Counted from the first letter of the stretch, positions 25,724 to 48,253 are shown. The stretch: 58,063 nucleotides of DNA from a virus (IMGVR_UViG_3300013094_000055:1-58063); one strand, 5' to 3'. Numbers and translations: made by a program. Notes: generated by a model from the sequence alone, not told the origin.

Positions 25724-25750
25724 AAACGAAAGGCCACCTTTCGGTGGCCT
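25724..25750 (-). terminator. Intrinsic terminator
   Basis: AGGCCACC-GAAA-GGTGGCCT followed by TTCGTTT. Confidence 0.8.
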
Positions 25751-25756
25751 AAGCGC

Positions 25757-28086: not shown

Positions 28087-28144
28087 AGCGGCTCCTTAGA
28101 TAGATACGTATCTAGTATCTAGAAATAAACCTACTTTGTCAGTG

Positions 28145-29122: not shown

Positions 29123-29286
29123 TAAGACTCTATCTCAGTAAAGGTAGGGTTGCTCAAGAATAAAGACGCCAACCGAGGGCTAGTAACTTGAAACTTTTCA
29201 AAAACTTTTCCATCTACAACAATTCCTATTGTGATTGGTTTAGATGATATTTTAGGAGTAGCCTTTTCCTCTTTGTTTTTACTCAT
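29122..29286 (-). CDS. Small hypothetical protein (54 aa)
   Basis: Not in track; MSKNKEEK...GIVVDGKVFEKFQVTSPRLASLFLSNPTFTEIES; coupled at both ends (ATGA, TAATG). Confidence 0.75.
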   Translation of the reverse strand: MSKNKEEKATPKISSKPITIGIVVDGKVFEKFQVTSPRLASLFLSNPTFTEIES

Positions 29287-29977: not shown

Positions 29978-31756
29978 TTAGTTAGTTACGGTAGCGTAAA
30001 ACGGTCCAATCGAGTTGCCTTGATTTTGAGTCGAAGGTGTAAGAATAATACCATGCAAGTTACCTGTAGGGGTTATGGTTCCGCTCGAAGCAGTTCCTAG
30101 AGAGCTATTAAAAGCCCCATCGCTGTACCCAGTGGCTGTGGCATTGGACCCATGGACCACTACCTTTAAAGAGTTAATTATTGAAGACACTGCGGTGGAG
30201 GCTATAGTAGAAACGGTTCCAGCCACTGATCGGTAAAGGTTTAAATAATATTGTGTATAAGAAGTTGAAACTGGTGCAGGGTTCTCATACGCTGTGTAGC
30301 TATAGTAGTAGTAGCTGGTGCCACCACCGCTTACGTAGTACTGATAGCTGTAAGTGTATGAGCCATAGCGGGCGTAGTAGTTGGTGCCATTAGTCGTGGC
30401 ATAACCAATAAGTCCATACCCTGTGCCTGATCCGTTAAAAGGACCTGCAGTATACGGAGCTGTGTAGTGAGCGCCAGTTCCTGAAGCAGTGTACGGATAG
30501 TTATATGCGTAGGTATACCCGTCTGTCTCTTCTCCTACAGCTGCCCACCAGTTATTAGAGTCTTGAATCATGAAGGCAATACCAGACCCTAGCGATACTG
30601 TGGTCGCCTCAACAGTGACAAGTGGGCTACCCAGATCAACTGCCGCTATGGAATCATTGCCAGGTGAATCGTTGGTTACTGCCGTTCCATTATTGGCAAA
30701 CCAAGTTCCCTTAATAGCCTGCCACAAGGTTCCAGATGAAGATGTTCCCAATGAGCCTGAGGTAGATCGATTAAAGTTATCGTTTACAGATGGCAATGGG
30801 ATAACCGCATTAGAGGCAGCAGAAGTGGTGGTTCCTTCAGCGTTTGTTGCGCTTACTGTAAATGTATAAGAGGTTCCTGCCGCAAAGGCTCCAGTAACGG
30901 TAAAGTAAGTAGAGTATTGTGTAACTGTTAGGGCAATCGATGGCGAAGATACTACAGAGTATCCGGTTATAGAAGACCCGTTAGGCGATGCGGCTGTGTA
31001 AGGTATATTTACCGAAGTAAAGCTGTTAATGGTTACGGTGCCAAGAACAGGTGCTGAAGGTGCGCATACCGCTTGAATATAAACGGCAGGGGATACCCCT
31101 TGATTTTTATTTGCCGTAGAGGTTCCATTAGCATTAGTAGCCGTGACGCCGTACGTATTTTCTGAACCTGGGTTTTCTGTTATAACAATAGGGCTAGACG
31201 TTCCTGTAGCCGAGTGGTTAGTAACATTATAAGAGGTAATTGTGTACAGTTGTATAGGGCTTCCGCCAGAATTAGAAGGGGGAACAAACTGAACTGAGAC
31301 TTTAACTGGCCCATAAGCCTGTCCTGGAGCAACTGTAGCCGTAGGAGGCGAGGCGTCGTAAGAAAAAAGGTCTGGAGCATCAGGGACTGTTGTAGCCAAA
31401 ACTGAATTAGATGGCGCAGATGGCGCAGAAGAACCCGTAGAGTTAGACGAAGTTACTGTATATGTGTAGGAGATGTTAGAAGATAGGCCTGTAATAGTTA
31501 TAGGGCTCGATGAACCGCTAGCCGTATACGATCCAGGGTTTGATGTTACAGTGTAGCTAGTTGCAGCCCCACCAACAACAGCTGGAGTAAAAGATACTAT
31601 AGCGGCACCGTTGTTAAAAGCCCTATTGAGCCCCACATCTAAAGCGGATACTCCTGTAGGTGACCCCGGAACATCTGGGATAGGGGTGTTGCCCGCGTTA
31701 GCATCACGGTACTTATTTCTATTTAGAGTGTTAAGTCTGCTGGCTTTCTTAATCAC
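29978..31756 (-). CDS. Fibre/adhesin with three FN3-like repeats and a C-terminal lectin-like domain
   Basis: Repeated P..P...V.F.P...GG....YTVT...Y...V.ATNA.G; DNFNR domain start; Tyr-rich insert. Confidence 0.8.
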   Translation of the reverse strand: MIKKASRLNTLNRNKYRDANAGNTPIPDVPGSPTGVSALDVGLNRAFNNGAAIVSFTPAVVGGAATSYTVTSNPGSYTASGSSSPITITGLSSNISYTYTVTSSNSTGSSAPSAPSNSVLATTVPDAPDLFSYDASPPTATVAPGQAYGPVKVSVQFVPPSNSGGSPIQLYTITSYNVTNHSATGTSSPIVITENPGSENTYGVTATNANGTSTANKNQGVSPAVYIQAVCAPSAPVLGTVTINSFTSVNIPYTAASPNGSSITGYSVVSSPSIALTVTQYSTYFTVTGAFAAGTSYTFTVSATNAEGTTTSAASNAVIPLPSVNDNFNRSTSGSLGTSSSGTLWQAIKGTWFANNGTAVTNDSPGNDSIAAVDLGSPLVTVEATTVSLGSGIAFMIQDSNNWWAAVGEETDGYTYAYNYPYTASGTGAHYTAPYTAGPFNGSGTGYGLIGYATTNGTNYYARYGSYTYSYQYYVSGGGTSYYYYSYTAYENPAPVSTSYTQYYLNLYRSVAGTVSTIASTAVSSIINSLKVVVHGSNATATGYSDGAFNSSLGTASSGTITPTGNLHGIILTPSTQNQGNSIGPFYATVTN

Positions 31757-31768
31757 GACTTAATCTCC

Positions 31769-31843
31769 TTAATTGTTTTTAGCTTGAGCATCCTCATATG
31801 TCTGACCAGCCGTGCCAGATGTGCTGGCTTTAGTGGCTGACAT
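31769..31843 (-). CDS. 24-aa mini-ORF similar to the N-terminus of the next gene
   Basis: MSATKASTSGTAGQTYEDAQAKNN*; ATG overlaps the upstream stop (TAATG). Confidence 0.55.
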   Translation of the reverse strand: MSATKASTSGTAGQTYEDAQAKNN

Positions 31844-32178
31844 TAAGCGATCTCGCTACCGTACGCATGAAATGATAGTGTAGAGCTAGAGGCAAAGACA
31901 CGAATAGTCGCACCATGCTCAAGAGTGACGCCAAGAGTAAGGAACGTTGTGTCGTTGGCGTTAACTGTAGCTCCATATACAAGCCAGTTAGGTCCAGAGG
32001 AAGAAGCTGTGCCGTTTGGCCAAACAGCAATGCGGTAGGTTGCTGGGGAAGCAGCCTGATTACAGATGGCAATAGTAGACACTACAGCCACTGCAGTGCT
32101 TCCGCTAGGGGTGTACAGTGTTGTCTCTGTGCTAGCTGCAGGGTTTGACTGCCCTAAAACTTTATAGGTGGTTGCCAT
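31843..32178 (-). CDS. Small beta-sandwich virion/fibre adaptor protein
   Basis: MATTYKVLGQSNP...VSTIAICN...FHAYGSEIA; AAGGAG SD. Confidence 0.7.
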   Translation of the reverse strand: MATTYKVLGQSNPAASTETTLYTPSGSTAVAVVSTIAICNQAASPATYRIAVWPNGTASSSGPNWLVYGATVNANDTTFLTLGVTLEHGATIRVFASSSTLSFHAYGSEIA

Positions 32179-32201
32179 GATGCTCCTTCGTTATGTACTA
32201 A

Positions 32202-33266
32202 CTATACCTCGGTAGAGGGTTTTTGTAGGGCTTTATAAAAGCCTAAGTTCTCTACAAGCCTAAAATCTGAAGGATTTATCTCAACAGCCTTAGACCCGTA
32301 CATAACAGCTAGCTCAGTCTCCCCTAAGTTAAACGCAGATAATGACGCCAAATCATATGGCAGTTCTCCCCAGGCAAAGGACTCACAAAGATAATCAAGA
32401 GGTTTTTCTTTTATTTCTAAAGCCTTTTTCGCATAGTAAAGGACGTTTTTCCAATCCTCTAACTCATAGTAGTACTGTGCTATCTCCACAATTACTTCTC
32501 TACGGCCAGGAGATTCCCTTTCAGCTTTTAACATCCATTTAAGTCGTTCAACACCTGTTTCTATTTTTGCAAGATACCGCATAGATGCGGCGCGCTCAGG
32601 CGCCCATACTGCTTTCGGCAGGCCTAGGTGGCGAAGGAATTCCGGTTTAGCTTGCTTGTATAGTCCGTAGTTAAACAGCTCACGTGCATAGTAAAAAGCT
32701 ATGCGGTCATCGTCGGGATTTTCTACAGCAGACTGTGCCAATAAAGGCAAGTACTGACCTCTGGACTTTGTATCATCCGCGTGGTGGTGAATCTCTAAAC
32801 CAACTGTTTCAGTAGTCTCTTGAACCCTGTCATTAATCAACACTTCATGCACGGGGTGCTTCCAACGATATCCGTGACGTGCATGGATTTTATCGCCTTG
32901 ATATTGAAGGCCCGGGCTTCCGTCCGGGTTCCAGTTCCATGTGTATGTGTACCGAGGACGGGTAGCAGTGGCTTTTTCTAGATGCTCACGCCATCCTGGC
33001 TGTAGTTGCTCGTCCATATCAAGAGCAACGCAGTAATCAATATCTGCTGGTAAAACGGCAAGAGAAGCGTTTCTAGCGTCGTCAAATCTCCAAGGATGAA
33101 CGCTGATGTTTACGACATGTATGCCTAAAGATGAAGCAAGCTCTACAGTTTTATCTGTAGAGCCTGTATCTGCAATAAGTAAGTAGTCCGCTTCTTTAGC
33201 GGAGTTGTACCAACTCTCTACAAACTGTTCTTCATTTAGAGCAATCGTATAGACTGCTATCTTCAT
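32202..33266 (-). CDS. GT2-family glycosyltransferase with C-terminal TPR repeats
   Basis: IALNEE, DTGSTD, WRFDDARN, LDMDE, HPVHE, then TPR-like helices. Confidence 0.92.
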   Translation of the reverse strand: MKIAVYTIALNEEQFVESWYNSAKEADYLLIADTGSTDKTVELASSLGIHVVNISVHPWRFDDARNASLAVLPADIDYCVALDMDEQLQPGWREHLEKATATRPRYTYTWNWNPDGSPGLQYQGDKIHARHGYRWKHPVHEVLINDRVQETTETVGLEIHHHADDTKSRGQYLPLLAQSAVENPDDDRIAFYYARELFNYGLYKQAKPEFLRHLGLPKAVWAPERAASMRYLAKIETGVERLKWMLKAERESPGRREVIVEIAQYYYELEDWKNVLYYAKKALEIKEKPLDYLCESFAWGELPYDLASLSAFNLGETELAVMYGSKAVEINPSDFRLVENLGFYKALQKPSTEV

Positions 33267-33571
33267 TAGTGTGTGTGATCTGGGTTCTGTTGTGGCATCA
33301 TGCGGCTCATAGTAAAGCTGAGCGCTTGATTGAGTTCCATTTGATAAATAGCATCAAGGACGTCTTGAGCACCGCGCTTGACATCCATCATGCTTGAAGC
33401 ACGCTCGATATCAAACTGCATATGGATATCTGAAGCGGCTACGTACGTGCCGTCTTCACGCTTAAGAACTACAAAAGCAGTTTCGTACTTCTCTGGGGCA
33501 GGTGCTTGAGTTTGATCGTCTGCAGGTGTTTCTGAAACAACTTCTGCGTCTTCAATTGGTGAATCGGTCAT
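33266..33571 (-). CDS. Hypothetical protein
   Basis: 101-aa ORF, AAGGA SD, coupled to the GT2 gene. Confidence 0.7.
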   Translation of the reverse strand: MTDSPIEDAEVVSETPADDQTQAPAPEKYETAFVVLKREDGTYVAASDIHMQFDIERASSMMDVKRGAQDVLDAIYQMELNQALSFTMSRMMPQQNPDHTH

Positions 33572-33579
33572 AGTAGTCC

Positions 33580-33843
33580 TTAGTTAGTAGTTGATGTGTA
33601 TGCAGCGTAGTCCGTATCGAACTGTGGGTCAAGCTGTGTAAAGTCTACTAGACCTTCAATAACATCTGGTCGAAGACCCGCCAAGTCTGAAGGTGTCCAT
33701 TCACCAGCAGCTTCATACTTGTACATATTTGAGTAGCCGTTAAGTTCGTACTTAATTTCAATCGTCAACGCTTTGATCTTTCCCTTATCGTCAGGAAGTG
33801 CAGCCAAGCTGTTGACTGTCTTTGTTGCTTCTGATGCGCTCAT
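33580..33843 (-). CDS. Hypothetical protein (possible fibre chaperone)
   Basis: 87-aa ORF in operon. Confidence 0.65.
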   Translation of the reverse strand: MSASEATKTVNSLAALPDDKGKIKALTIEIKYELNGYSNMYKYEAAGEWTPSDLAGLRPDVIEGLVDFTQLDPQFDTDYAAYTSTTN

Positions 33844-33846
33844 TGA

Positions 33847-34170
33847 TTATCCTTGAGGTGTAGTTGGGCCAGTAGGTGCTGTAGGCGCTGCAGCAGGAGG
33901 TGTCCCGCCATCAGCTGGTGGAGGTGTAACTGTAACAGGCTGTTGTGGATTTACAGGGGTTACAGGGGCAGGAGTTACAGGAGGAACAGTGGTGGGGTCA
34001 AAGGGCTTAAAGCTCTCACCATCAACCTTAGGCATTTGTACCGGGGTAGGGCTCACATGCTCATGCTCATACCCAACAATATTGCCTTGTGGGTCTTTCA
34101 TCTCAAAACGCTTATAGTTTGGGTCTGGGCTGTCAACTTCTGTGCGCGTTAGCTCGCTGTAGTCCATCAT
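33847..34170 (-). CDS. Hypothetical protein with Pro/Thr-rich C-terminus
   Basis: AAGGAG SD; TATACT upstream. Confidence 0.7.
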   Translation of the reverse strand: MMDYSELTRTEVDSPDPNYKRFEMKDPQGNIVGYEHEHVSPTPVQMPKVDGESFKPFDPTTVPPVTPAPVTPVNPQQPVTVTPPPADGGTPPAAAPTAPTGPTTPQG

Positions 34171-34205
34171 TATCTCCTTCGTAAGAGTGTAAGTATACCT
34201 GAATA

Positions 34206-35105
34206 TTAAGTTAGAACAGTGATTATTGCGTAACCGGCTCCAGAGTTTACCCCAGTTTCTCCGCCGTACGCCGTGATGTAGTTAGAGTTTATATAGCCAG
34301 AGCCTCCGCCAGCCCCGCCATTTCCACGGCCGTCAATGCCAGAAGCTCCGCCTCCTCCACCCCCAAACCAACCACCGCCACCACCCGGGCCTGTGTAGTT
34401 GTACTGAGAATAGGCGCCGCTATCGTTTCCTCCAGTACCACCTTGACCAGCGGAGCCGTTACCTGCGTTTCCACTACCTCCAGAACCTGGATAGCCTCCG
34501 GTACCCCCAGCAGAGTCTGTGCCAGGGCCGCCAAAACCGCCGTAGCCTGACATAGCACCAGGTGTTCCTGGAGAGACAATATTGGTGCCTGAATAGCTGT
34601 TATTTAGAAAAGCGGCTAAGAACCCGCCTCCTCCACCATCTCCTCCCGGAGATCCAGCTGTAATAGCGACGTTCTTTGTTCCTGAGCCGCCGCCACCGCC
34701 AGCAATTAGAATCACATTACCAAAGGAAGTTCCACCGACGCGTACGTCAGTCATTCCTCCTCCTCCTGCGCCCACCTTGTTTTGACCTGAGTTTAATCCT
34801 CCGTTACCTCCACCATTCCAACCAGCTGTTGCTGTGTTGCTTTGGTTTTGGTTTCCTCCTTGACCTCCGCAAGAGATGTACAGAGTAGTGCCGTGTGAAA
34901 CTGAATAAGTTCCATAGGTATACCCGCCGTAGCCAGGGGTTTCTGAAGTCACGCCTCCAGCAGCGCCCCACAACTCAATCTTCATAGTGTTGATGTTCGA
35001 GGTTACAAATGTTACTTGTGAACCTGTGTAGTTAAATCTAATTGTATCGCCCTTGCTATAGCTGCCCGGAACCGTAGGGAATGTATACGCCGTCATATTG
35101 CCCAC
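34206..35105 (-). CDS. Glycine-rich (polyglycine-II bundle) adhesin-like protein
   Basis: ELWGAAGG, GWNGGG, GGGGMTDVR, LIAGGGGG, GGGGGWFGGG. Confidence 0.75.
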   Translation of the reverse strand: MGNMTAYTFPTVPGSYSKGDTIRFNYTGSQVTFVTSNINTMKIELWGAAGGVTSETPGYGGYTYGTYSVSHGTTLYISCGGQGGNQNQSNTATAGWNGGGNGGLNSGQNKVGAGGGGMTDVRVGGTSFGNVILIAGGGGGSGTKNVAITAGSPGGDGGGGGFLAAFLNNSYSGTNIVSPGTPGAMSGYGGFGGPGTDSAGGTGGYPGSGGSGNAGNGSAGQGGTGGNDSGAYSQYNYTGPGGGGGWFGGGGGGASGIDGRGNGGAGGGSGYINSNYITAYGGETGVNSGAGYAIITVLT

Positions 35106-35908
35106 CTTACAATAACTATTCCAGAACCGCCTGTGTTAGTACCGCTTCCACCACCGCCACCGTTTCCAGTATTAGCGTTTCCTCCAGTGGCTGAACTTGA
35201 AGTGTAAGACCCATAGCCTTTTCCTTGAGTGCCTTTAGCACCACCAGAAGCTTGGCCGCTTCCTCCATCTTGTCCTCCGCCACCAGCGCCCATCATAATT
35301 CCGTAAATATATTTTCCTAAACCACCTGAACCAGCAAAGTAGTTTCCTTGAAAACTGTTTCCTGGGTGACCTGCTTCGTTAAACCCGCCACCGCCAGAAC
35401 CTCCACCATAACTGTAACCATCATATCCGTAACCGCCGTTGTTGCCCTGACCGCTTGTTCCAGTTCCCTGTGAACCAACTACAGAGCTACCATAGTTACT
35501 TCCACCACCAGAGCCACCATTTGAAGCGCCCTGTGAAGCCCCGCCTCCCGCTCCACCGCCAACAGCGGTAAAGAGAGAGCCAAAAGAAGAGTTGCTTCCC
35601 GAAACACCGTTTCCTGAACCGCCTGCACCAACTGTGACTGCGTAAGAACCTTGGGTTAAGTTGTAAGAGTTTTGTACGATGACTCCACCGCCTCCACCAC
35701 CACCCCCGCTAGAGCTCCCTCCTGCTCCACCGCCAGCTACAACAACGATGTCTGTAGTACCGCCCACGGATACGTTAAAAGAACCATTGCCAGTAAAGAC
35801 AGCATATGCGTGGTCACCATAACGTGTAATTGAATACGAACCTGTAGCGGTAGCCGTAAACTTAGTGGGTATTACAAACCCCAACACAGAGTGGGATACG
35901 GCACTCAT
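35093..35908 (-). CDS. Glycine-rich fibre-tip protein
   Basis: VVVAGGGAGG, VTVGAGG, GSGIVIVR signature. Confidence 0.75.
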   Translation of the reverse strand: MSAVSHSVLGFVIPTKFTATATGSYSITRYGDHAYAVFTGNGSFNVSVGGTTDIVVVAGGGAGGSSSGGGGGGGGVIVQNSYNLTQGSYAVTVGAGGSGNGVSGSNSSFGSLFTAVGGGAGGGASQGASNGGSGGGSNYGSSVVGSQGTGTSGQGNNGGYGYDGYSYGGGSGGGGFNEAGHPGNSFQGNYFAGSGGLGKYIYGIMMGAGGGGQDGGSGQASGGAKGTQGKGYGSYTSSSATGGNANTGNGGGGGSGTNTGGSGIVIVRWAI

Positions 35909-36447
35909 TAAGAAAGCCCATTACCTGAGATAAACCACGTAGTTGAGGCGACTTTAATTGCTGTTGCAATACCGTACGGAGCAAGCGTTCTAGCCCCTGT
36001 TGTACCAACACCAGCAAGGTACATTGTGTCTGAGCAAGTAACGCTTGCAGTTGTAGAGCTACTAGCGATAAAGGTAATCACTGTTCCTAGAGGGTAAGCT
36101 ACAGAAGAGTTAGAGGGGATGGTAACTGTAGGGGCAGCATTAGTTAAATAAATGTGGGAGCCCTCATCAGCATAAGTTGTTGTATACGTGCTGCCTGATT
36201 GCGCGTCTTGAGGGATACCAATAAAACCTAATCCATTAGCTGTTGTAGCTGAGGTTGCAGTGTTAGCTGTTGTTGGAGTAGAGCCGGTTGGACCAGTCGC
36301 TCCTTGAGGGCCTGTTGGACCAGTAGGGCCAGTCGGAGATGCTGCACTACGAACTAGCGCCCACTCCGAACCGTCCCACGACCATGTGTTATTGCCATAG
36401 GTATAGGTCTGGTTAGTTGTCGGTGAAGAGGGAAAACTGATAGCCAT
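35908..36447 (-). CDS. Collagen-linker fibre adaptor (paralog of 37957-38649)
   Basis: MAISFPSSP...WSWDG..W, short Gly-X-Y run, conserved C-terminal beta domain. Confidence 0.75.
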   Translation of the reverse strand: MAISFPSSPTTNQTYTYGNNTWSWDGSEWALVRSAASPTGPTGPTGPQGATGPTGSTPTTANTATSATTANGLGFIGIPQDAQSGSTYTTTYADEGSHIYLTNAAPTVTIPSNSSVAYPLGTVITFIASSSTTASVTCSDTMYLAGVGTTGARTLAPYGIATAIKVASTTWFISGNGLS

Positions 36448-36480
36448 TTTATGTCCTTTACGGATTAGGTGTTTTTAATT

Positions 36481-37071
36481 TTAGCCTATTTGGTCTAAAG
36501 AGGTCTCAGTGTCTAAGATAAAGGTTTGACCAGCTTCTTTAATGCCATGTTCCCCTACTTCAATTACACCCATCTGCCTTAAAGCTTCTAAGTTAGATGC
36601 CTGAGACGCGCTTCCACTTAAAGCCTCAAGGACAGACTGACGCTTCAAGCGCTTGTCCCAATAGTCTGGTTGAGCCTCCTCTATTTCAGCTCTTGTGTAT
36701 TTCTTTGAAAAACTGTGGTATATCTTAATTAAATGGTTTAATTCTCTAGCAATACCTAGAGCATTATTTTTAACTCTATCCATTTCAAACATCTTTATCT
36801 GCGCGTCAATGGCATCAATTTCATCATTAGTGGCCAATAGGCGTTGAATTTGAATTTCTTTTTTCTGTATGTCGAAGCTTAGAAGCTTTGCGTTGTAGTA
36901 CAAAGAATCAATTTCTAAAAGGCATTGAACGTAGCGCATTTCTTCTGTGTCATGTTGGTTTATAACAAACTTTTCAAGTTGAAACTTAGAACGTGATTGA
37001 GTGATTTCTTCAATCTCATCTAATATATTTTTAGACACTGACGACATAGCTGTTGTTAATTCTTTACGCAT
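36481..37071 (-). CDS. Coiled-coil hypothetical protein (possible chaperone of the upstream propeller)
   Basis: Helical and charged; overlaps the propeller gene. Confidence 0.65.
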   Translation of the reverse strand: MRKELTTAMSSVSKNILDEIEEITQSRSKFQLEKFVINQHDTEEMRYVQCLLEIDSLYYNAKLLSFDIQKKEIQIQRLLATNDEIDAIDAQIKMFEMDRVKNNALGIARELNHLIKIYHSFSKKYTRAEIEEAQPDYWDKRLKRQSVLEALSGSASQASNLEALRQMGVIEVGEHGIKEAGQTFILDTETSLDQIG

Positions 37072-37960
37072 TTTGTGAAAGACTCACCCCAAGCTCAAAT
37101 GTTCCATTAGTATTAGATATGTTTGAAGTGGTATCTGTAGAGTATAAACGCTTCTCATAGACATAATCTTTAGCATAGTATCCCGCAGTATTAGCGTCAG
37201 AGAATGCGGTGACAGTGTTTCCACTGCTTAAGGTAACGCTTTGAGATAAACTACTGCTTGTTTCAGTTGAGTAACTAAACTTGTACTCGGTATCAGGACT
37301 ATTGTTTTTATAATATCCGCTAGAGTTACTTGACAGTCCTGTGCTTGACGTCATATTGGTTGCCGTAGTTGCGGACACACTTGAAGACGTGTCTGTTGAA
37401 AAAACATATTTTTGAATTACGTTACTTCCGCCGCTACCATTATACCCAGGAGTTAAGTATGCACTTGTAGACCGTCTAGTCATATTTCCCCCGTATTGGT
37501 TGTAACCAGTTGAGCCCCAAGGATACGTTGAAGTATTGGTAGTAGTGTCTGTAGAAAAACTTATTTTAATTACTGGCATAATAGTGCTGGTACCTGATAT
37601 TGGGTAACCTCCTGCCTGAAACCCATTTGCATAAGAAGCGAACTGGTACGAACCATCTGCTTGCTGAGTTTTACTAGAAAGAGTAGAGGCACTAAGGGTG
37701 GAAAAGGGCATCTTTTTAATAGAGTCTTGACCTGAGTTTGGTCCACCGGCCCAGTAACCTGCCACACCTAAGTTGCTGAATCCCGTTCCTGGATTTTGAC
37801 CAGGAGGATTGCTTGAAACGGAACTGTTGCTTACTGTAGCTGCTGTATCTGCCGCGTATGAGTATTGGGAAAACGTACCGCCTTGGGCTATGGAAAACCC
37901 ATATCGTGGAAGAAGGTGCGCAGATTTAGAGGAGCTAATAACCCCAATAAACCAACTCAC
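37064..37960 (-). CDS. Beta-propeller (Kelch-like) fibre-tip protein
   Basis: About six repeats of GY..GG...I.K..FSTDT. Confidence 0.7.
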   Translation of the reverse strand: MSWFIGVISSSKSAHLLPRYGFSIAQGGTFSQYSYAADTAATVSNSSVSSNPPGQNPGTGFSNLGVAGYWAGGPNSGQDSIKKMPFSTLSASTLSSKTQQADGSYQFASYANGFQAGGYPISGTSTIMPVIKISFSTDTTTNTSTYPWGSTGYNQYGGNMTRRSTSAYLTPGYNGSGGSNVIQKYVFSTDTSSSVSATTATNMTSSTGLSSNSSGYYKNNSPDTEYKFSYSTETSSSLSQSVTLSSGNTVTAFSDANTAGYYAKDYVYEKRLYSTDTTSNISNTNGTFELGVSLSQNA

Positions 37961-38649: not shown

Positions 38650-38650
38650 A

Positions 38651-41600: not shown

Positions 41601-44242
41601 AATGACGCACCAGCCTGTAGGTTGAACACGGTATCGAACTTCAAATAGCGGTAGTTGTTACCTGAGTTGTTATATGGGTAAGAGTAACCAAAGTACGCAT
41701 CTTGGTAGGCATACCAGCTGTTGCCGCCAGCTCCTTGGTTATTCCAGCTGTTTTTCCAGAACACGCCTTGAACGTGAACAAAGCCTGGAACACCACTAAT
41801 TCCGTCACGAATCTGATAGCCGTAGCTGAGGTACCAGTCACCAGTAACGTTAATGTTGAAGTAGTTGCTGTAATAATCTGGGTAGTAAGCCCATGAAACA
41901 TAAGAATATAGACGAAAATCGTTGTAGGCTCCTGAGTTTTGAGCCGTGTATAGAACGCTATAGTGAGGAACTGATTGGTTTGAAGACCAAGGGGTACCTG
42001 CTTGGCTAAATCCTTCACCTTGAAGAGCGGTTCCCGCAGCGTGGTCGCTTGGAATAGCAGACCAGTTCCAGTTACTGCCGTAATTGCTTGTACCGAGGGA
42101 GGTCTGACCGTCGTACATGTAGTCGCCTTGGTAGTAGAACTGGTACATCGCACCTTGACCACTAGGGTTATTTGTATAAATAGGGTAAGCACTGTTCTGC
42201 TGACCATTAAGGGTAATGTTTGCAACAGAGGATGAGTTAGCTGTCAACTGAGCGTTAAGAGCGGCGTTCCAAATGTTCCAAGCAGTTCCTAGGTTTCCAC
42301 CAGAAAGAGATGGGTTGATGGTAATTGAGCCCGATTGAACAGATGGAAGGGCGGCTCCAGTTCCAGATACGGATAGATAAACTCGCTCTCCACCTGAGTA
42401 GCCGTGGTTCAAAGAGTAGATGGTGTTAGCTGTTGGGTTTGCTTGTGTACCCGTAAAGCTGTATGTTCCAGCTCCTTGAGAGAAGCGAATGGCAGCACCA
42501 CTGTTCGAGCTATAGCCGTAAGGGGCAGTATAGTTGTTACCGCTAGGGCTGTATAGAAGTTGGAAGCGGTTGGCGTTAACCACGTTGATAGTGGAGCTGA
42601 CGTTGTTAGTAAGATACGCATTTGGGTATGAGTAAGAGCCAAATGGGTCATACTGAATATATGGGAAAATCTGAGGAGCTGACCCAGAAGAAAGCGTGTA
42701 AGTTACGCTAGAGCCTTGAACTAACCCATGGTTAGGGTAGTAGAAAGTGTCGGCTTCAGCGTCATCTGTAAGGAACATAACAAAGACGTTACCGCTACCA
42801 AGGTAGTAAGAATAATAGCCGTAGTAATCTTGGTAAGAGTTGTCTCCGTAGCTGCGGATAACTCCGTCACCGTAAGACCATAGGTTATATGTTTGATAGG
42901 TTGAGTAAGAGTTCTTATAGCGGTCAAAGTTTTCAATGAAGTTCCACTCAGTCGGATAATTGTTCGACTCGTTCATAGTAAAGTTGCCGTTTTGGCTTGT
43001 GCTGTAGAACGGGTAGCTCACGCTTGATGGAAGGTAGTAGCCTGTTGGGCTGAACGTAATCTTGTAACGAGGACCTTGGTTACCTAGGCCGTACCAGTAA
43101 GAGCTGCCATTGTTTGGGTTAGTCGATGTGCTAGCAACACCGTTTCCGCTCTTCAAATCCCAACCAGAGCCCGAACCTGTCCACTCAGCAGTTGTGTAAA
43201 AATCTGTCTCATAGCTGTAACTATACTTGGTTAGATAGTACGCTTCATAGCAGAGGTGCAACTTATGTCGACCATAGTTGTATGTTCCAGCCCCTGTAAA
43301 GGTGATAGGAGACCCGTTAAACGATGAACTGAGTTGGAAGCCGGCGGTTGTTGGGTTCTGAACATAATAAACTTGGAAACGTTGCAGTCCACCAATTTGA
43401 GTATCTCCTGAAGAAGGGACATACACAAGCGTGTCGTTAGCCTTAAGGTTGCTGTTAGGCCAAAGAATACGACTTCCAGAAACGTCGACGTTTGTAGCGT
43501 TGAACTTAAAGAAATAAGTAGATGTGACTTGCTCAGTTTCAAATAGGCTACTAACAGCAGAGAATGTGGTTGTTAGTGTTTGACGAGAGTCAACATAAGG
43601 GTTTCCATCAGGCGCTGTTGCAGAGGTGCTTGTGATAGTAATCTGCTTTGTGCCAATGGTGTTTACAGCATAGAAGTTGGAGTTAACCGCAAATCCATGG
43701 ACTGATGGGGTTGTAATAAGAATGGTTGATGGGTTGTTTCCATCTGTAGTAACTCCAACAGATGGGTCATAAGGAACGTTAGAGCCAGCGTAGAACTGGC
43801 CCGGAGTAATAGACGTGTAGATAGTGCTAATATCGCCTGTGTAGGTAGAGTTATACGTGGCTTTGTATGTGAATGATGTTGAGTTCGGTACAGCTTGGAT
43901 TAGGAATTGACCCTCAGCAGTAATGTAGGCTAGGCCACGAACGTCGATAGGTGAGCCTTGAACTAAGCCGTGAGGTGCGTTAGTATTCACAACAATAACG
44001 TTAGAGCCAACGGTTGATTGAACCGAGGATACTCCGCTAAGGATTGAGTCAGAGTCGGATACATAGAAAGAAGGAATGTTGTTAGAAAGTTCGAGGGTTT
44101 CCCACTTAGTTGTCTGTAGACCATACTCAAAGTCGGTATCAATCATCGCCTGAGGCGTGGATACACGTAGCTTATGTACTGGATCTAGAAGCGCTTCTTC
44201 AGGAGTGAAGTTTGCACTAAAGTTGGACAAATATTGGGTCAT
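38651..44242 (-). CDS. Giant (1863 aa) multidomain virion/adhesin protein
   Basis: Ser/Thr/Tyr-rich beta protein; LRVSTPQ...RQTRKYFRYQPGKG...WYGAGKIRFG core with many inserted repeats. Confidence 0.75.
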   Translation of the reverse strand: MTQYLSNFSANFTPEEALLDPVHKLRVSTPQAMIDTDFEYGLQTTKWETLELSNNIPSFYVSDSDSILSGVSSVQSTVGSNVIVVNTNAPHGLVQGSPIDVRGLAYITAEGQFLIQAVPNSTSFTYKATYNSTYTGDISTIYTSITPGQFYAGSNVPYDPSVGVTTDGNNPSTILITTPSVHGFAVNSNFYAVNTIGTKQITITSTSATAPDGNPYVDSRQTLTTTFSAVSSLFETEQVTSTYFFKFNATNVDVSGSRILWPNSNLKANDTLVYVPSSGDTQIGGLQRFQVYYVQNPTTAGFQLSSSFNGSPITFTGAGTYNYGRHKLHLCYEAYYLTKYSYSYETDFYTTAEWTGSGSGWDLKSGNGVASTSTNPNNGSSYWYGLGNQGPRYKITFSPTGYYLPSSVSYPFYSTSQNGNFTMNESNNYPTEWNFIENFDRYKNSYSTYQTYNLWSYGDGVIRSYGDNSYQDYYGYYSYYLGSGNVFVMFLTDDAEADTFYYPNHGLVQGSSVTYTLSSGSAPQIFPYIQYDPFGSYSYPNAYLTNNVSSTINVVNANRFQLLYSPSGNNYTAPYGYSSNSGAAIRFSQGAGTYSFTGTQANPTANTIYSLNHGYSGGERVYLSVSGTGAALPSVQSGSITINPSLSGGNLGTAWNIWNAALNAQLTANSSSVANITLNGQQNSAYPIYTNNPSGQGAMYQFYYQGDYMYDGQTSLGTSNYGSNWNWSAIPSDHAAGTALQGEGFSQAGTPWSSNQSVPHYSVLYTAQNSGAYNDFRLYSYVSWAYYPDYYSNYFNINVTGDWYLSYGYQIRDGISGVPGFVHVQGVFWKNSWNNQGAGGNSWYAYQDAYFGYSYPYNNSGNNYRYLKFDTVFNLQAGASFSPSTLYTFMTNAVSSFASSFSYPTLTTANPAYITLYNANRFGLQDQNKQFNYQFTSTGTPNIILKQSGLAGALDGTYSVTSTPSTNSFTLALPFQAPVDTINADATTVSNNLIKIPNGHYFSMGAKITYLNNGNANISGLTNGTTYYLYIQDDHYVGFATSYLNATSKQLISISAGTGTHLIQYNLVAGTSVAAGTVTVTAGSNLIVGDSNTLFRRYFKVGDTFIVKQNGSAGAPGTLYYYQVASITDDQNLIITGAVGFTQSGANYFFSTKFYVRPDGFAIHRPYDGGIQLTAGTAPNSQTVRQTRKYFRYQPGKGIQTSAGINFNPPVSFNTLNLSTTTTTTAVGTASASATVTLASSNTSIYPGQKVTGTGVPTGTYVQSVTSSTQIVLTNSVTLSSITLTFSGYVAIATTRYPHRLSAGNSILVSGSGDNAYNGAQSVNVIIDQYTFTFNTTSLPTSSTPSGLIEFNVQGYSGSYTRVGMYDFQNGFFLEYDGSVLWAVRRSSTQQLSGTAQVVNGSGVVNGTNSNFSGQLVIGDKVVIRGGTYRVVAVNSSSQIVVQPQYKGVSASNVIISKTIDTRVPQSQWSIDHCDGTGPTGYVLNINKMQMIYLDYSWYGAGKIRFGFKDQYGHIRYVHEFIHNNLQDIAYMRSGNLPARYEIENGPNPTYVPSLYHWGTSVIMDGNFDPDKAYLITAPSNNLTFTNGQSNTATLTASSSVTYSYNSYKRTYDWYDVLTFNAQDASKFPSGTPLYSADNQLNGAQTVAYTEYSGTSVLVYIYLQSGYYYPNSYASFNSGTVITAGATVSTINIGTALLPLISIRLAPSVDSNLTGALGAREIINRMQLHLNEAEITTTHDSTIYMILNPGLSNVGWQTVGKPSLSQYIAHNAGDTVAGGLNLYSFRASGGSVDQTTGRRLSNTNAFPLSGITDMGNSILGGDFTYPNGPDILTLAAKVIDTTGIGAAQPYGITGRMSWSESQA

Positions 44243-45561
44243 TACATTACCTTCCAGCCATATGTGCTACTGATGTATGTGAGTACAATTGTAGCGTAGT
44301 TAACGTTTAAAACTAGGTTTTGTGACGCACCTGAGATATTGTTTGCCGAAGTAATCGTTAATGGATTAGCAACCCATGTTCCAAATACATCAACAAAAGT
44401 AACTGTGTTTCCTACTGATGGGGTTGACGGCAAAGTGACCGTAAACGAACCGGCAGTTGTGTTTGCAATGATTGCGTCATTATTACTTGCCGTGTACGCC
44501 GAGGTTTCTGTAACCCAGTTCTGGATACTTCCTCCACCGCCACCGCCAGATACCTCTACCCACGCACTTGAGTAGTAAATGTATAGAGCGTCTACAGCCG
44601 AGTCATACCAAAGCGCTCCCGCAGTTGTTGTTGCTGGAGCAGTATCTGAAATGTAGATATTTGAACCAGTAGCACCCGCAGGACCGGTTGGACCGGTAGC
44701 GCCTTGCGGACCCGTTGGTCCCGGCACTGTACTTACTGCACCCGTAGGTCCTGTTGGCCCAGTAGCACCGTTTTGGCCAGTCGCTCCAGTTGGACCAGTC
44801 GCTCCAATAGGGCCAGTCGGACCTGTTGGGCCTTGCGCCCCTGTAGGACCTGTCGCGCCTATCTGACCTTGGTTTCCAGCTAAAGAAACATTCCAAGTAC
44901 CAGAGACAGTTCCACTACCTGAAGAAGTGTCGACGTTTATAGATACAGACCATGTAGGGTTAGTGAATGTTATGCTGTTGATAACACCTTCAATGTACTT
45001 GGTTATATCTGTTTGTAGAGCAACGCGAACACGGTTACCTACTGCATATGCTCCAACACCAGGGTTTCCGTTATATAGGAACGTGACTCCTGTGTAACCA
45101 CTTGCAGGGAAACCAATTCCGCCAAAGTATGTTACGTTGGCATAACCAATACCAGTTGGACCTGTTGCTCCTGTTGGCCCAGTTGGACCTGTTGCTCCTG
45201 TTGGCCCAGTTGGACCTGTCGGTCCTTGAATTCCCTGAGGTCCTTGAAGACCAGTAGGGCCTGTGGCACCTGTCGGTCCAGTAGGGCCGGTGGCCCCTTG
45301 AGGACCTGTTGGCCCAGTTGCTCCCTGCGGACCAGTCGGTCCAGTAGAGCCTGTAGGACCAGTAGGTCCTTGCGGACCAGTAGGACCTGTTGGTCCGATA
45401 GGTCCTGATGAATAGGCTAATGCAGTCCATGTGTGAACGCCATCACCGACTTTGAACTTTCCTGTGTCAGTCTCAAGTCCAAGCTCACCAATAGCAAGAG
45501 TAGGGTTGGCAGACGTCCAGTTGGCGGCGGTATCACGCCTAAATTGGATTTGAATAGCCAT
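44242..45561 (-). CDS. Collagen-like fibre with Mtd-N-like N-terminus
   Basis: [11 protein letters not shown]...[17 protein letters not shown]; two long Gly-X-Y (GPT/GAT/GPQ) blocks. Confidence 0.85.
45152..45219. repeat. 27-bp tandem repeat (about 2.5 copies) in the collagen region
   Basis: CCAGTTGGACCTGTTGCTCCTGTTGGC twice exactly, plus a 14-nt partial copy. Confidence 0.9.
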
Positions 45562-45575
45562 GTTAGTATTCTACC

Positions 45576-46340
45576 TTATCCTGTCGCTGTGCCTGCGTTA
45601 ATAGAAGTAATTCCTCCATAAACTGAAGTAGCACTTCCGCCATCTAACTCAATAAGTGCGTATCCAGCAGCTCCTGTTGGGCCTGTTGCTCCGGTAGCTC
45701 CTGTTGGTCCAGTGCTTCCAGGACCTGTTGTTAGAAGTACCGCAGAGAAGTTAGTTCCTTCTCCTTCAGAGTTTCCATTTTGAAGAGACTGTGTTGTTAC
45801 TGAAGACCAAGCACTGCAGTCAATATAGTCAGTACTTCCGTTTAAATAAACGGCTCTTCCACCAGATATAAAGTAACCGTTACTGGGGTCCGGGGTTCTA
45901 ACAAGTATTAATTCAGCGGTACCGTTTTTACGAATCTGTACGGTGCTCTGGTTTGTTGTATTTAAGCTAGTCCACCACGTATTGATGCTTAGATAGTAGT
46001 ACCCAGCAATGTTTGGCTGAAAGCGGTGAGTAGTATTGTTAAACCAACTTTGAGGGTCAGCAAGTGATGTGAACGCAATAACTGTATCCGTAGAAGCAGA
46101 TGTTAAAGCTTGGTTAGTGGTTAAGACCGCCTCTACAACATAGTTAGATGGGGTTAACCCAGCGGTTGGTCCAGTAGGCCCTGTAGGACCTTGAGTACCT
46201 GTGCTTGATACCCAGCCAGCGGCTGTATAGACGCGAACAGCGCCAAGTGTAGTGTTGTAGTAAACGTCACCTATGTTGGCGTTACCAGGGTCACTGGCTT
46301 CACTAACAAGATTAAGAGGTGTTAGGTATTTACGCGACAC
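45576..46340 (-). CDS. Fibre protein: collagen / C1q-like domain / collagen
   Basis: GPT runs flank FQPNIAGYY...YLNGSTDYI; ends in ELDGG motif. Confidence 0.75.
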   Translation of the reverse strand: MSRKYLTPLNLVSEASDPGNANIGDVYYNTTLGAVRVYTAAGWVSSTGTQGPTGPTGPTAGLTPSNYVVEAVLTTNQALTSASTDTVIAFTSLADPQSWFNNTTHRFQPNIAGYYYLSINTWWTSLNTTNQSTVQIRKNGTAELILVRTPDPSNGYFISGGRAVYLNGSTDYIDCSAWSSVTTQSLQNGNSEGEGTNFSAVLLTTGPGSTGPTGATGATGPTGAAGYALIELDGGSATSVYGGITSINAGTATG

Positions 46341-46350
46341 CTAAGCCTCC

Positions 46351-47937
46351 TTATGCGTGGACTACGACTCGGATTTGGTTTGTTGTAGGAGCGGTTGCAA
46401 AAGCTACAGTAATTGTATTTGTAGTCGAATGCGTGATATCTGCTTCGTACTCAACATAGGTTGCTGTGTCGTAGATCGCTACTATAACGTCTTGTGTTCC
46501 GAGGTTGTGGGTTACTGTAAATGATGTTGCTGAGTTATTACCGATTGTTGTTGCGTACTTGCGAACAACTAGCGTGGTATCGATAGCAACGTTGTTAGTG
46601 TTAACAACGATACCTGTACCGGCGCCAACGTAGAGGCCTGTTGAGTCTGTAACCAAACCTGATGTTGTAGCGAGCTTAATTAAGATACCTGAAGAGCTGG
46701 TGGTTAAGCCGCCTGTGCTCGTAGGGTTGATGCTAAGACCAGAAGATGTAGTTGTAAGACCTGATGTTGAAGGTAGAAGAATCGAAGCGCCAGTTCCGCT
46801 TGCTTGCAAACCACCTGTTGAGATTGGATTGAAGGCAATTGAAGCTCCGCTGATAGTGATGCCGTTACCGGCTGTGTACTCGCCAGCAGCTGAGAACTGT
46901 GTCCAGGTGGAAGCTCCGGCAGAGTATGCTGTGATAATCCAGCCCTGAGTTGCGTAGGTTCCCTCTTCTACAAATACGAATGTGCCTTCTTTAAGGCTTG
47001 TATCTTCAAGGTTTGTAGAGGCAACTAGAAGTTGAGTTGACGAGTTATATGTATAGATACCGTTTTGCGTGGCTGTTGCCTGGTTCTTTACAAGGATGCG
47101 GTCGCCGTTGTTAAGAGCAACTCCGCTAAGAGAAGTTAAAGTTGCAGAGAGCGTAAGAGAAGTACTTGTTGCTGTGCGTACAGATCCAAGAACATAAAGG
47201 CCCTCAGCAACTGAATCAACATATCCTTTTGTTGCAGCATCTGTTGCAGATGTTGGTGTTCCAAGATTTGTGATCTTATAGGTGTTGAGAGAAACGTTGG
47301 CAACAGGGGCGCCAAATGTATCAAGAGTAAAGTCAGCTGGAGTAAATCCGTGAGAGTGGTCAGATGCGCTTGCTGTAGAAGCAGAGCCTGCTGCACCTGT
47401 TGTAGAGGTGATTGCTGTAGGTGTTAAAGCACCAAGTGAAGGTGTTCCGTGTGAGTGGTCAGAACGAGCAACTGTTGAGGCAGAACCTGAGGTCGATGTT
47501 TGACCATAAGAGGTTCCGGTTACTACTGTTCCAAAGCCAGGACCTGCGTGGGTGTGATCTGCGCGAGCAAAGTTAGTCGATGTTCCATCAGCGCTTGAAG
47601 CTGTAATAGAGATAGAGGTTGATTGACCTGAACCGAAGTTGTCAACCTGCTGCCAAGTAGAACCGTTGGAGTAGTAGATTAAGAAGTTGTCGGTTGCATA
47701 ATAAAATGTTCCAGCAGCAACTGCGTTAGCTAGTGGGCGGGAAGATAGTGTTCCTGCACTGATTCCACCAGCAAGTGCCCATGCTGTGCCGTTATATATG
47801 TATAGGCCGTTGAGCGAAGTGTCGTAGTAAATCTGACCTACGACAGGAGAAGAAGGAGCCGTCGCAAGGTTCTGAATACGAGCATTTTGAAGCTCAAGCT
47901 TATTCAGATTGATAGGGGTTAAGAAACTACGTGCCAT
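46351..47937 (-). CDS. Long fibre/whisker protein
   Basis: Three DHxH motifs, DAATKGYVD, GDRILVKNQ, GL-type spiral repeats, C-terminal THNLG domain. Confidence 0.8.
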   Translation of the reverse strand: MARSFLTPINLNKLELQNARIQNLATAPSSPVVGQIYYDTSLNGLYIYNGTAWALAGGISAGTLSSRPLANAVAAGTFYYATDNFLIYYSNGSTWQQVDNFGSGQSTSISITASSADGTSTNFARADHTHAGPGFGTVVTGTSYGQTSTSGSASTVARSDHSHGTPSLGALTPTAITSTTGAAGSASTASASDHSHGFTPADFTLDTFGAPVANVSLNTYKITNLGTPTSATDAATKGYVDSVAEGLYVLGSVRTATSTSLTLSATLTSLSGVALNNGDRILVKNQATATQNGIYTYNSSTQLLVASTNLEDTSLKEGTFVFVEEGTYATQGWIITAYSAGASTWTQFSAAGEYTAGNGITISGASIAFNPISTGGLQASGTGASILLPSTSGLTTTSSGLSINPTSTGGLTTSSSGILIKLATTSGLVTDSTGLYVGAGTGIVVNTNNVAIDTTLVVRKYATTIGNNSATSFTVTHNLGTQDVIVAIYDTATYVEYEADITHSTTNTITVAFATAPTTNQIRVVVHA

Positions 47938-47950
47938 TTACTATTTCTCC

Positions 47951-48253
47951 TTACGAGAGGTATGCGTTTCCACTAAAAGCTGAGTTAAATGTGACCGTAA
48001 GGTGCCGCGAATCAGTATACGAAATTTCTCCTTCTACAATGTTACCAGCAGAATCTTGAACTGTAACGTTAGGGTAGAAGTCTAAATTATGATTTATTAC
48101 CCAGCTGGATGCTGGGGTATTTTGTACGAAATGGTAGGCCACTAAAGGAGCGTTAAGAGCACCAGCATAGATGTTAGTTACATTTGCAGGAGCGGGCGTT
48201 GTTGGTGTTACTGTAACGACAACGGGTTGATCAGAAGGATATACGTAAGTCAT
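47951..48253 (-). CDS. Small virion protein with HNL domain
   Basis: WVINHNL..PNVTV.D, similar to the C-terminus of 46351-47937. Confidence 0.7.
   Translation of the reverse strand: MTYVYPSDQPVVVTVTPTTPAPANVTNIYAGALNAPLVAYHFVQNTPASSWVINHNLDFYPNVTVQDSAGNIVEGEISYTDSRHLTVTFNSAFSGNAYLS

Follow-up and report, generated by a model that had tools for sequence, protein, structure and literature searches.

The virus contig IMGVR_UViG_3300013094_000055 of IMG/VR (58,063 bp, estimated to be 61% complete; its whole length is called the window) represents the structural half of a myovirus, and all of its genes lie on the minus strand. Between a predicted head-to-tail adaptor gene (48253-49335) and a putative neck gene (27101-27631), it carries an island of fibre genes (27646-48253) in which a few N-terminal and C-terminal modules recur in different combinations. 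On balance, the evidence presented here favours several multi-gene virion fibres that are assembled head-to-tail from interchangeable modules, the first of them most likely anchored at the neck. The features of the island and the structural genes around it are collected in Table 1, and genes are named below by their lower coordinate. Related loci are cited by L numbers.

Genomic context of the fibre island

The window's major capsid protein is 72% identical to those of the Streptomyces phages LuckySocke and BRock; with the one of Bacillus phage BCD7 it shares 44% identity. In LuckySocke, gp82 and gp83 are adjacent, and their homologues in the window, the adaptor gene (E 2.7e-40, 38% identity) and the boundary gene 27101, are separated by 20.6 kb. 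Every related contig covering the region has an insert at this site, the content of which varies from contig to contig, and a 'tailspike' is annotated at the equivalent place in LuckySocke. A megablast search of the island against 50,697 phage records gave no match. The lineage is abundant in metagenomes, with 1173 homologues of the adaptor at E <= 0.001 and at least 130 IMG/VR relatives of the boundary gene. For the latter, nothing meaningful was obtained in PHROGs, Pfam or the PDB (searched by sequence and by profile), and the ESM Atlas gave only sub-threshold leads, its neighbours being Phage_HCP, head closure knob and H_T_join_2 at 0.86-0.88. The original prediction, which described a branched fibre tree encoded between neck genes at 29978-48253, was right about the two genes between which the island lies, here recognised as the homologues of gp82 and gp83, and the gp82 homologue is an adaptor by its predicted fold; the head-closure label given to the other gene has no support beyond these leads. 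Its limits were too narrow, as they left out the anchor gene 48253-49335 and the last island genes (27646-29963).

Table 1. Predicted genes and domains of the fibre island and the flanking structural genes, in the order of the minus strand
Coordinates	Strand	Product and domains	Remarks
54532-56109	minus	Large terminase	
51901-53622	minus	Portal	
50998-51792	minus	Scaffold	
49884-50954	minus	Major capsid protein	
48631-49335	minus	Predicted head-to-tail adaptor domain, residues 1-235 of the 360-aa (amino-acid) protein 48253-49335	gp82 homology and fold
48283-48606	minus	C-terminal Ig domain of the adaptor, residues 244-351, p132/LtfC-like	VIA-align, phrog_1084
47951-48253	minus	100-aa protein: short Pro/Val-rich N-terminal strand and CTD-B (residues 28-100)	TAATG overlap with adaptor gene
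46351-47937	minus	528-aa fibre: N30 plug (MARSFLTPINL and YYDT..W module), core 203-386, CTD-B 441-528	
45576-46340	minus	254-aa protein: N30 plug, C1q-like core (62-203), collagen stretch, DGG-containing tail	
44242-45561	minus	439-aa stalk: Mtd_N, collagen repeats, YIYY..W module, TSP4 AD/XD1- and gp9-like C-domain (309-438)	
38651-44242	minus	1863-aa distal protein, cyanomyovirus 'virion structural protein' family	phrog_5838 at 1.8e-162
37957-38649	minus	230-aa fibre: MAISFP-type N-terminus, collagen repeats, CTD-A knob (residues 120-230 = 37960-38292)	
37064-37960	minus	298-aa repeat protein, N-terminal plug A (MSWFIGVISSS, 37925-37960)	GTGA overlap (-4) with CTD-A gene
36481-37071	minus	196-aa protein	8-nt (nucleotide) overlap with preceding gene; phrog_1409 (unknown function) at 6.3e-11
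35908-36447	minus	179-aa fibre: MAISFP-type N-terminus, collagen repeats, diverged CTD-A (residues 75-179)	
35093-35908	minus	271-aa Gly-rich tip candidate	TAATG overlap (-1) with fibre gene; PF21722 3.6e-9; phrog_2295 1.3e-27
34206-35105	minus	~295-aa Gly-rich protein, ALK/LTK glycine-rich domain	PF12810 1.9e-14; likely start at ATGA overlap
32202-33266	minus	GT2+TPR glycosyltransferase	inside island
31843-32178	minus	111-aa small beta-rich protein	recurs upstream of FN3 protein
29978-31756	minus	592-aa FN3-repeat protein, distinct C-terminal domain	PF00041 at 1.4e-11
29283-29963	minus	226-aa phrog_7084 protein (unknown function)	inside island
28145-29122	minus	GlcNAc-type glycosyltransferase	inside island
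27646-28086	minus	HNH endonuclease	between island and boundary gene
27101-27631	minus	Boundary gene, 176 aa, putative neck (stopper or head-closure) protein	LuckySocke gp83 homologue, E 3.9e-23
22683-24524	minus	Sheath	
21957-22667	minus	Tube	
13365-15230	minus	Baseplate J	

A predicted head-to-tail adaptor with a fused collar-type Ig domain

The protein encoded by 48253-49335 was modelled with AF2 on an alignment (A1) of 65 homologues, with a pLDDT of 90.8. With VIA-align, its N-terminal domain matched the DT57C neck (8hqo_P, Z 10.5, root-mean-square deviation (rmsd) 1.6, 69 aligned), the T5 portal complex (9ilp_a, Z 10.4), LME-1 (Z 9.6) and T4 gp13/gp14 (9lu4_A, Z 9.4, 111 aligned over residues 1..201). 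By the modelled fold this part is a head-to-tail adaptor, and the gene position fits, as the major capsid protein gene is followed by 49444-49812 and then by 48253-49335, before the tail genes.

The C-terminal Ig domain of the same protein matched DT57C 8hqz_T (Z 12.1, rmsd 2.6, 106 aligned) and T5 p132 (7qg9_L, Z 12.0), whereas generic Ig domains reached a Z of 8.6 or less; Foldseek also matched it to the p132 type (E 7.6e-9). At the sequence level it belongs to phrog_1084 (3.4e-18), and it matches Pfam LtfC PF23926 at 7.4e-4 with 20.5 bits, under the cut-off of 27. A precomputed PF23926 match is present in some close homologues, and a free-standing Ig homologue (L195:2189-2530) matches phrog_3304, 'L-shaped tail fiber protein assembly', at 1.1e-16. 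The Ig domain is absent from LuckySocke gp82, the match of which spans residues 4-230 only.

In T5, as far as described in the available part of the source, a p132 dodecamer forms the collar that bears three side fibres, probably through ~50 N-terminal residues of pb1 (PMC10038345). The p132 (LtfC) proteins of T5 and DT57C are alike to the window domain in Ig fold (Z 12), with homology at the profile level for the free-standing relatives. Moreover, the role of p132, which is anchoring by means of fibre N-terminal residues, is the role proposed for the window domain (PMC10038345, in part). The two differ in setting, since p132, as given in the same portion, occurs as a separate protein that forms a ring around the distal tail tube of a siphovirus, whereas the window Ig domain is the C-terminus of a myovirus adaptor. 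A collar formed by it would therefore sit at the neck.

In podovirus-like loci, 298-312-aa proteins beside CTD-A fibres (L114, L148, L174) were also considered as adaptors. They look adaptor-like by eye and gave no match to the A1 profile, and the assignment was dropped.

CTD-B proteins and the conserved Ig, small CTD-B and N30 order

Downstream of the adaptor, a shared domain named CTD-B forms the C-termini of the products of 47951 and 46351, and its alignment (A5) gave at least 421 IMG/VR relatives. In 55/56 distinct cases, the gene after a small CTD-B protein (92-140 aa) starts at -11 to +25 nt. The N30 pattern occurs in 44 of these 55 close genes and most of the others are visible variants, compared with 3/338 control open reading frames (ORFs). 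On the upstream side, 39/56 neighbours have an adaptor/Ig profile match (domain E <= 1e-3), comprising 16 adaptor-Ig fusions and 23 free-standing Ig proteins; a further 13 begin with MAV.YNT.IDQGADW and belong to the same family by eye only. These upstream junctions measure -1 or -4 nt. The order of Ig, small CTD-B protein and N30 fibre is conserved across two virion types; three podovirus-like contigs of ~40 kb (L195, L199, L237) carry the triad, with a free-standing Ig protein, between the large terminase and portal genes. Additionally, a long N30 fibre with CTD-B at its end has a second N30 protein behind it in 16/45 close cases, or, in podovirus-like contigs, the portal gene.

The N30 N-termini of 46351 (MARSFLTPINL) and 45576 (MSRKYLTPLNL) are paralogous, as had been claimed (blastp E 4.8e-4). 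Likewise, the G..(W/Y)(Y/F).T...Y....W module noted in four proteins recurs in 46351, 45576, 44242 and 37957 with pairwise E-values of 1.8e-4 to 7e-4.

The same CTD-B data bring in a different location for the first chain, in which 47951 and 46351 decorate the capsid and the chain projects from the capsid surface instead of the neck. The CTD-B profile matches residues 163-242 of 9nx3_A, a 'Capsid decoration protein', at E 5.9e-12. Moreover, 46351 belongs to phrog_2647, labelled 'head decoration', at 8.4e-51, homologues of its core in Phrappuccino and cyanophage PSS2 carry annotations of head or capsid decoration ('head decoration'), and the podovirus-like triad is placed between the terminase and portal genes. 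However, literature searches gave neither the source phage of 9nx3, which was not found in the P7-1 paper either, nor its capsid-touching domain, and the 'head decoration' names in RefSeq may have been taken over from the PHROG label. Furthermore, Phrappuccino gp70 is encoded three genes before the tail sheath gene, among neck genes, and in the window lineage it is the adaptor that contributes the domain immediately ahead of the small CTD-B protein. A capsid location is considered unlikely. The neck is preferred for the first chain mainly because the order of the triad is conserved and its first element is part of the adaptor in the window lineage.

The first gene after the adaptor often opens with a Cys-rich stretch (C..C.....C.C) before the Pro/Val-rich strand (L012:11090-12370, L022:11090-16939, L232:2570-2992, L238:2576-2956). 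Judged from its sequence, this stretch could be a metal-binding knuckle.

CTD-A knobs and the proteins encoded behind them

The two MAISFP-type fibres, 37957 and 35908, share the N-terminal pattern MAISFP.SP...W.WDG..W (65% identity over 29 aa, E 3e-4) and a C-terminal domain, CTD-A (Smith-Waterman score 115, z 9.0, reached by 0/300 shuffles). Each is followed at once by a different gene that overlaps it, and two Gly-rich genes stand behind 35908. The shared termini and the different gene behind each fibre (labelled propeller and Gly-rich) had been recognised in the original prediction, in which the C-terminal domains were taken as sockets for the N-terminus of the next product.

An AF2 model of CTD-A from alignment A3 (pLDDT 92.9) was compared with the whole PDB by structural search. 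The best match was the capsid-spike knob of phage Pa223 (9ny6_C, Z 13.4, rmsd 3.0, 106 aligned), followed by the baseplate cup of Klebsiella phage KP1 (Z 11.1), residues 79-180 of CBA120 TSP4-N (7rej_A, Z 9.6), the tailspike of Acinetobacter phage Solidus (Z 9.4), a shorter TSP4-N construct (7rfv_A, Z 9.1) and 6o38_A (Z 8.5), which is the CpaA metalloprotease (PMC8825819, in part). StcE came next (7.2), and all later matches were at 5.7 or less. By the numbering in the accessible portion of PMC8825819, the matched TSP4 range is XD1, a probable spacer, and XD2 and XD3 are the domains that dock. The XD2/XD3 ranges were matched neither in the CTD-A structural search nor in the PDB search with 44242, two island domains having been modelled. 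The modelled fold groups CTD-A with the connector and knob domains found in phage fibres, and fold alone is no proof of docking. The CTD-A profile had no sequence match in the PDB, and a profile-profile comparison of CTD-A, CTD-B and the 111-aa protein revealed no relation (hhalign probability 0.4%).

Scanning IMG/VR with the CTD-A alignment gave at least 396 relatives, of which the best 80 loci were analysed. CTD-A stands at the C-terminus in 111/111 matches, with a tail of 0-3 aa, and 72 of the 91 distinct downstream genes start at -4 to +2 nt from its stop codon. Among these 72, 35 begin with the strict plug A motif M-P-I-[IL]-G-x-[IV]-[AS]-S (38 with a looser pattern), 21 encode N30 proteins of 83-86 aa, and 13 are other genes, several with a visibly degenerate plug-A motif. 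The corresponding frequencies in the other distinct ORFs of the same loci are 4/512 (strict) and 9/512 (loose), and some of these control ORFs look like true cases behind an undetected CTD-A. Within the motif G6 is invariant and S10 nearly so. The bodies behind it are unrelated, namely FN3 arrays, Gly-rich VVAGGGG domains, a ~185-aa family and a ~290-aa family. Swapping of tips as cassettes, proposed earlier, is supported by these four kinds of body behind one socket and one 10-residue plug. Adjacency of sockets and plugs across genomes, a check named beforehand, proved positive for both socket types, CTD-A and CTD-B.

Among the 60 window proteins, the strict plug-A motif occurs only in 37064, directly after the CTD-A gene 37957. 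The sole database homologue of the 37064 product is P0271 (30% identity), and for the propeller suggested earlier the only support is a lead from the ESM Atlas, in which 22% of one neighbouring cluster's members have a Kelch family. In the Actinomycetia phage DSL-LC01, as in relatives of the window, CTD-A is followed by a gene for an FN3 protein or for one of 307 aa that is annotated as a photosystem II assembly factor. Complex prediction of a CTD-A trimer with the first 45 residues of 37064 (x3) scored 0.00 against a mark of 0.32, with the controls not folded, and counts neither way.

Lambda Tfa and T4 gp38/gp57 are fibre assembly factors, and the genes right after the knobs might likewise encode transient assembly factors and not virion tips. 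Their immediately downstream and translationally coupled position, their conserved N-terminus with a variable remainder, and the membership of 36481 in no family of assigned function would all fit such a role. However, their bodies of 130-824 aa are FN3 arrays, Gly-rich ALK-like domains and repeat domains that look like surface adhesins, and gp38, Gly-rich in T2/S16-type phages, serves there as a virion adhesin in its own right, so that chaperones appear very unlikely here.

The cores of two tip proteins are unusual in their low complexity. That of a 299-aa protein after a CTD-A fibre (L173) has a long run of GC.GYGC-type Cys repeats, and that of a 164-aa protein (L153) has long poly-Thr/Pro tracts.

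The probable serial chain of unit 1

The genes from 47951 to 38651 make up unit 1 of the model presented below. The C1q-like core of 45576 matches Pfam C1q at 3.8e-4, under the cut-off. The following stalk, 44242, has Mtd_N (PF18454, 6e-15, 55.3 bits against a cut-off of 26.3) and collagen repeats (PF01391, 4.9e-21), and the succession of a short N30 protein with a DGG tail and an Mtd_N fibre, part of the earlier claims, recurs in L019, L025, L191 and L227. Searched against the PDB, residues 309-438 of 44242 resemble residues 46-174 of CBA120 TSP4-N (E 1.7e-9) and T4 gp9 (E 0.025), and a further match is the N-terminus of HylP-type hyaluronidase (E 2.9e-17). The C-domain had been described as gp34-like; gp34 is not what it matches, no homology to T4 gp34-37 was found, and gp9 is the only T4 match in this search.

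The stalk gene overlaps the gene for the 1863-aa protein (TAATG). In tblastn searches, this giant protein matched the marine T4-like cyanophages S-PM2, Syn1 and S-RSM4, the unrelated podovirus ctQRb9 and DSL-LC01, in which it is split in two; it had no PDB sequence match. Among loci with a homologue of it, an Mtd_N gene lies directly upstream in 13/21. Other short stalk genes occupy that place elsewhere, for instance a MAISFP-type gene in L105 and L106, a 374-aa tail fibre in ctQRb9 and a 183-aa protein in DSL-LC01.

Collinearity is evident in the relative L022, in which the first gene after the adaptor encodes 1949 aa and joins the cores of three successive genes of the window without change of order. 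A region like the 46351 core (Smith-Waterman z 6.5, reached by 0/500 shuffles) is followed by the C1q-like core of 45576 (residues 903-1087, 42.6% identity, E 2e-35) and by Mtd_N and collagen of 44242 (E 1e-26), with collagen-like repeats between the regions. CTD-B is absent from this 1949-aa protein, the N30 plug not having been looked for there. A fusion that lacks CTD-B is as expected if the separate products form one fibre and the knob/plug pairs are non-covalent joints. The serial order proposed earlier is accordingly supported for the first five genes by the core order of the fusion.

Proposed model and its weighing

In the proposed model, the fibre genes would begin with one of three types of N-terminal anchor, which are N30 (M[AS]R[KS][FY]L... 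and the YYDT..W module), Mtd_N and the MAISFP type, and many would end in a trimeric knob of the CTD-B or the CTD-A/XD1-like kind. The next, translationally coupled product would dock on the knob through its own conserved N-terminus. Unit 1 would thus run from the adaptor-fused p132-like Ig collar through 47951, 46351, 45576 and 44242 to the 1863-aa distal protein. Unit 2 would consist of 37957 and 37064, and unit 3 of 35908, 35093 and 34206, both being short collagen-like stalks with swappable distal proteins. Unit 4 would be the small-protein-plus-FN3 pair of 31843 and 29978. The analysis shows folds and homologies, coupled genes, adjacency across genomes and a fusion, whereas physical binding at each junction, the position at the neck and receptor binding by the distal products are inferred. 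The most likely place of unit 1 is the neck, since the head-to-tail adaptor itself contains the first docking domain of the unit.

Taken as a whole, this model is somewhat more probable than its negation. Of its parts, the serial arrangement and the swapping of cassettes have good support, and anchoring of the first chain at the neck is plausible. Collar anchoring, which had been claimed for all of the fibres, would apply to the first chain only, as suggested by the p132-like Ig domain and the conserved triad. A single branched tree is not supported, as nothing places the two MAISFP-type fibres or the 31843/29978 pair on it, and the earlier count of about five receptor-binding tips is not supported either.

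Several observations weigh against the model. No interface has been demonstrated at any junction. The structural likeness of CTD-A is to XD1, described as a probable spacer and not as a docking domain (PMC8825819, in part), and in its best match, the knob of Pa223 gp52, the distal end is free and carries no bound partner according to the portion of the preprint that was available (10.1101/2025.06.11.659172). The homology of CTD-B to 9nx3 and the 'head decoration' likeness of the 46351 core fit capsid attachment. In the siphovirus-like L118, L122 and L162, the same string of modules follows the tape-measure and distal-tail genes, in the order tape-measure, Dit-sized protein, 337-aa CTD-A protein, N30 protein, Mtd_N/CTD-A fibre and plug-A tip with -1 or -4 overlaps, so that the modules are silent on the attachment site. 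Additionally, the N-terminus of 35093 is only a weak plug-A variant, the adjacency counts for CTD-A and CTD-B come from related contigs that are not independent events and were de-duplicated on the first 35-40 residues only, and the contig is estimated to cover only part of the genome.

Some of these points would suit fibres that attach independently, each product alone and most likely at the baseplate, with the knobs as receptor-binding ends and the gene order reflecting co-expression and shared ancestry. The free distal knob of Pa223 gp52, the siphovirus tail-tip clusters and the 'tailspike' of LuckySocke at the equivalent place speak for such an arrangement, and so does a 979-aa protein (10423-13362) that could offer docking sites. 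The latter adjoins baseplate J, has an N-terminus homologous to the LuckySocke 'minor tail protein' gp100, and is followed by two small ORFs and then by replication genes. Independent attachment nevertheless leaves unexplained the 10-residue N-terminus on unrelated proteins after CTD-A (35/72 versus 4/512), the p132-like domain fused to the adaptor and the collinear L022 fusion, and it is regarded as rather unlikely for the island as a whole. Within the preferred model of serial fibres, some units may still be attached at the baseplate, because this baseplate-proximal protein exists.

A wider extension of the serial model can be formulated as a portable docking code across uncultured myo-, sipho- and podovirus-like phages, made up of the pairings of p132-like Ig with the Pro/Val-rich N-terminal strand, of CTD-B with N30 and of CTD-A (XD1-like) with M-P-I-L-G-x-I-A-S-S. 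By it these phages would exchange receptor-binding tips as cassettes of one gene each. In this abundant lineage it would have moved onto the adaptor, so that the neck, and not the baseplate alone, carries a long hypervariable fibre for host recognition, at the end of which stands the 1863-aa protein that marine T4-like cyanophages also have. Such a code is a tentative proposal, possible though short of probable.

Comparison with known systems and significance

A close architectural parallel is the Anabaena myophage A-1(L), where the neck protein gp5 bears fibres composed of gp82, gp81 and gp80, the products of one operon; N-terminal beta-hairpins of one trimer bind the preceding C-terminal trimer, and the distal bead has a carbohydrate-binding module (PMC10966104, as far as available). 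Both are myoviruses with fibres from several genes in series at the neck, the neck location in the window being a proposed one, and the likeness is one of architecture. According to the same partial source, the A-1(L) anchor is a separate pentadecameric neck protein, whereas that of the window would be an adaptor-fused Ig domain, presumably a dodecamer. Furthermore, A-1(L) repeats one bead ~14 times, as described there, whereas the window links proteins that are all different, in a set that is hypervariable between relatives.

In the CBA120 TSP1-4 and G7C gp66/gp63.1 complexes, receptor-binding proteins are joined through small trimeric beta domains of the T4 gp10-like XD type (PMC8825819, in part). 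The likeness of the window to CBA120 lies in the C-domain of 44242, by sequence, and in CTD-A, by fold (Z 9.6 to XD1). The window shares XD1 and not the proven docking domains XD2/XD3 (PMC8825819, same portion). The XD1-like domain is C-terminal on the window fibres, whereas in CBA120, as described in that portion, it is N-terminal on the baseplate-attached anchor tailspike. Pa223 gp52 is similarly a trimeric fibre, with the C-terminal knob that is the best structural match of CTD-A; it differs in that its N-terminus anchors on the capsid three-fold axes and its knob binds nothing (10.1101/2025.06.11.659172, available part).

For fibres encoded in series, general precedents exist in T-even phages. 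Gene order follows physical order in the long tail fibre gp34-35-36-37, and in T2/S16-type phages the gene for the Gly-rich gp38 adhesin comes right behind that of the fibre which the adhesin caps at its tip. The window candidates 35093 and 34206 also have a glycine-rich domain, a likeness of composition.

Serial multi-gene neck fibres (A-1(L)), an Ig collar (T5) and branched gp10-like complexes (CBA120) are already known, as the accessible parts of these sources describe. Compared with the literature examined, the fusion of collar and adaptor, the two knob/N-terminus pairings including the M-P-I-L-G-x-I-A-S-S tag and their spread among many uncultured phages are apparently new, no search having been aimed at the motif itself. 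If the pairings are real binding rules, they would provide a sequence-readable grammar of matching fibre genes in thousands of uncultured phage contigs, as judged by the CTD-A and CTD-B relatives counted above (at least 396 and at least 421). They would also explain host-range shifts by single-gene swaps, with short peptide tags attaching distal proteins to the fibre. Moreover, the adaptor-fused collar would be a second, structurally distinct multi-component neck fibre in myoviruses after A-1(L).

Other genes of the island and minor observations

The small-protein-plus-FN3 pair is linked to CTD-A in other loci. The 86-nt gap between 31843 and the FN3 gene is kept in 7 related loci, 106-aa homologues of the 111-aa protein directly follow CTD-A genes in L117 and L148, and homologues of the FN3 protein directly follow CTD-A fibres in relatives.

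Two glycosyltransferases are encoded inside the island (32202 and 28145), and glycosylation of the fibres by them is a possibility. The GT2+TPR enzyme (32202) lies directly before the gp83-like gene in many relatives and is 64% identical to one in the DSL-LC01 fibre island. The phrog_7084 protein recurs in the islands of most relatives, at times in two or three copies, and the HNH endonuclease is confined to the closest relatives (L027-L039 and L044). Three ORFs of 87-107 aa without family matches, one of which has a Pro/Thr/Ala-rich tail, occupy 33266-34170, flanked by the Gly-rich genes and the glycosyltransferase.

Outside the island, minus-strand ORFs of >=90 aa are missing from 25556-26289 (~730 bp), a region between the neck and tail genes that holds only plus-strand ORFs of 109-114 aa. 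The 979-aa protein and the C-terminal part of baseplate J have a common segment of ~55 aa (43% identity, E 0.007). In addition, a gene for a tryptophan-halogenase-like flavoenzyme lies inside the fibre islands of L081 (6957-8513) and of DSL-LC01 (L002:25678-27249).

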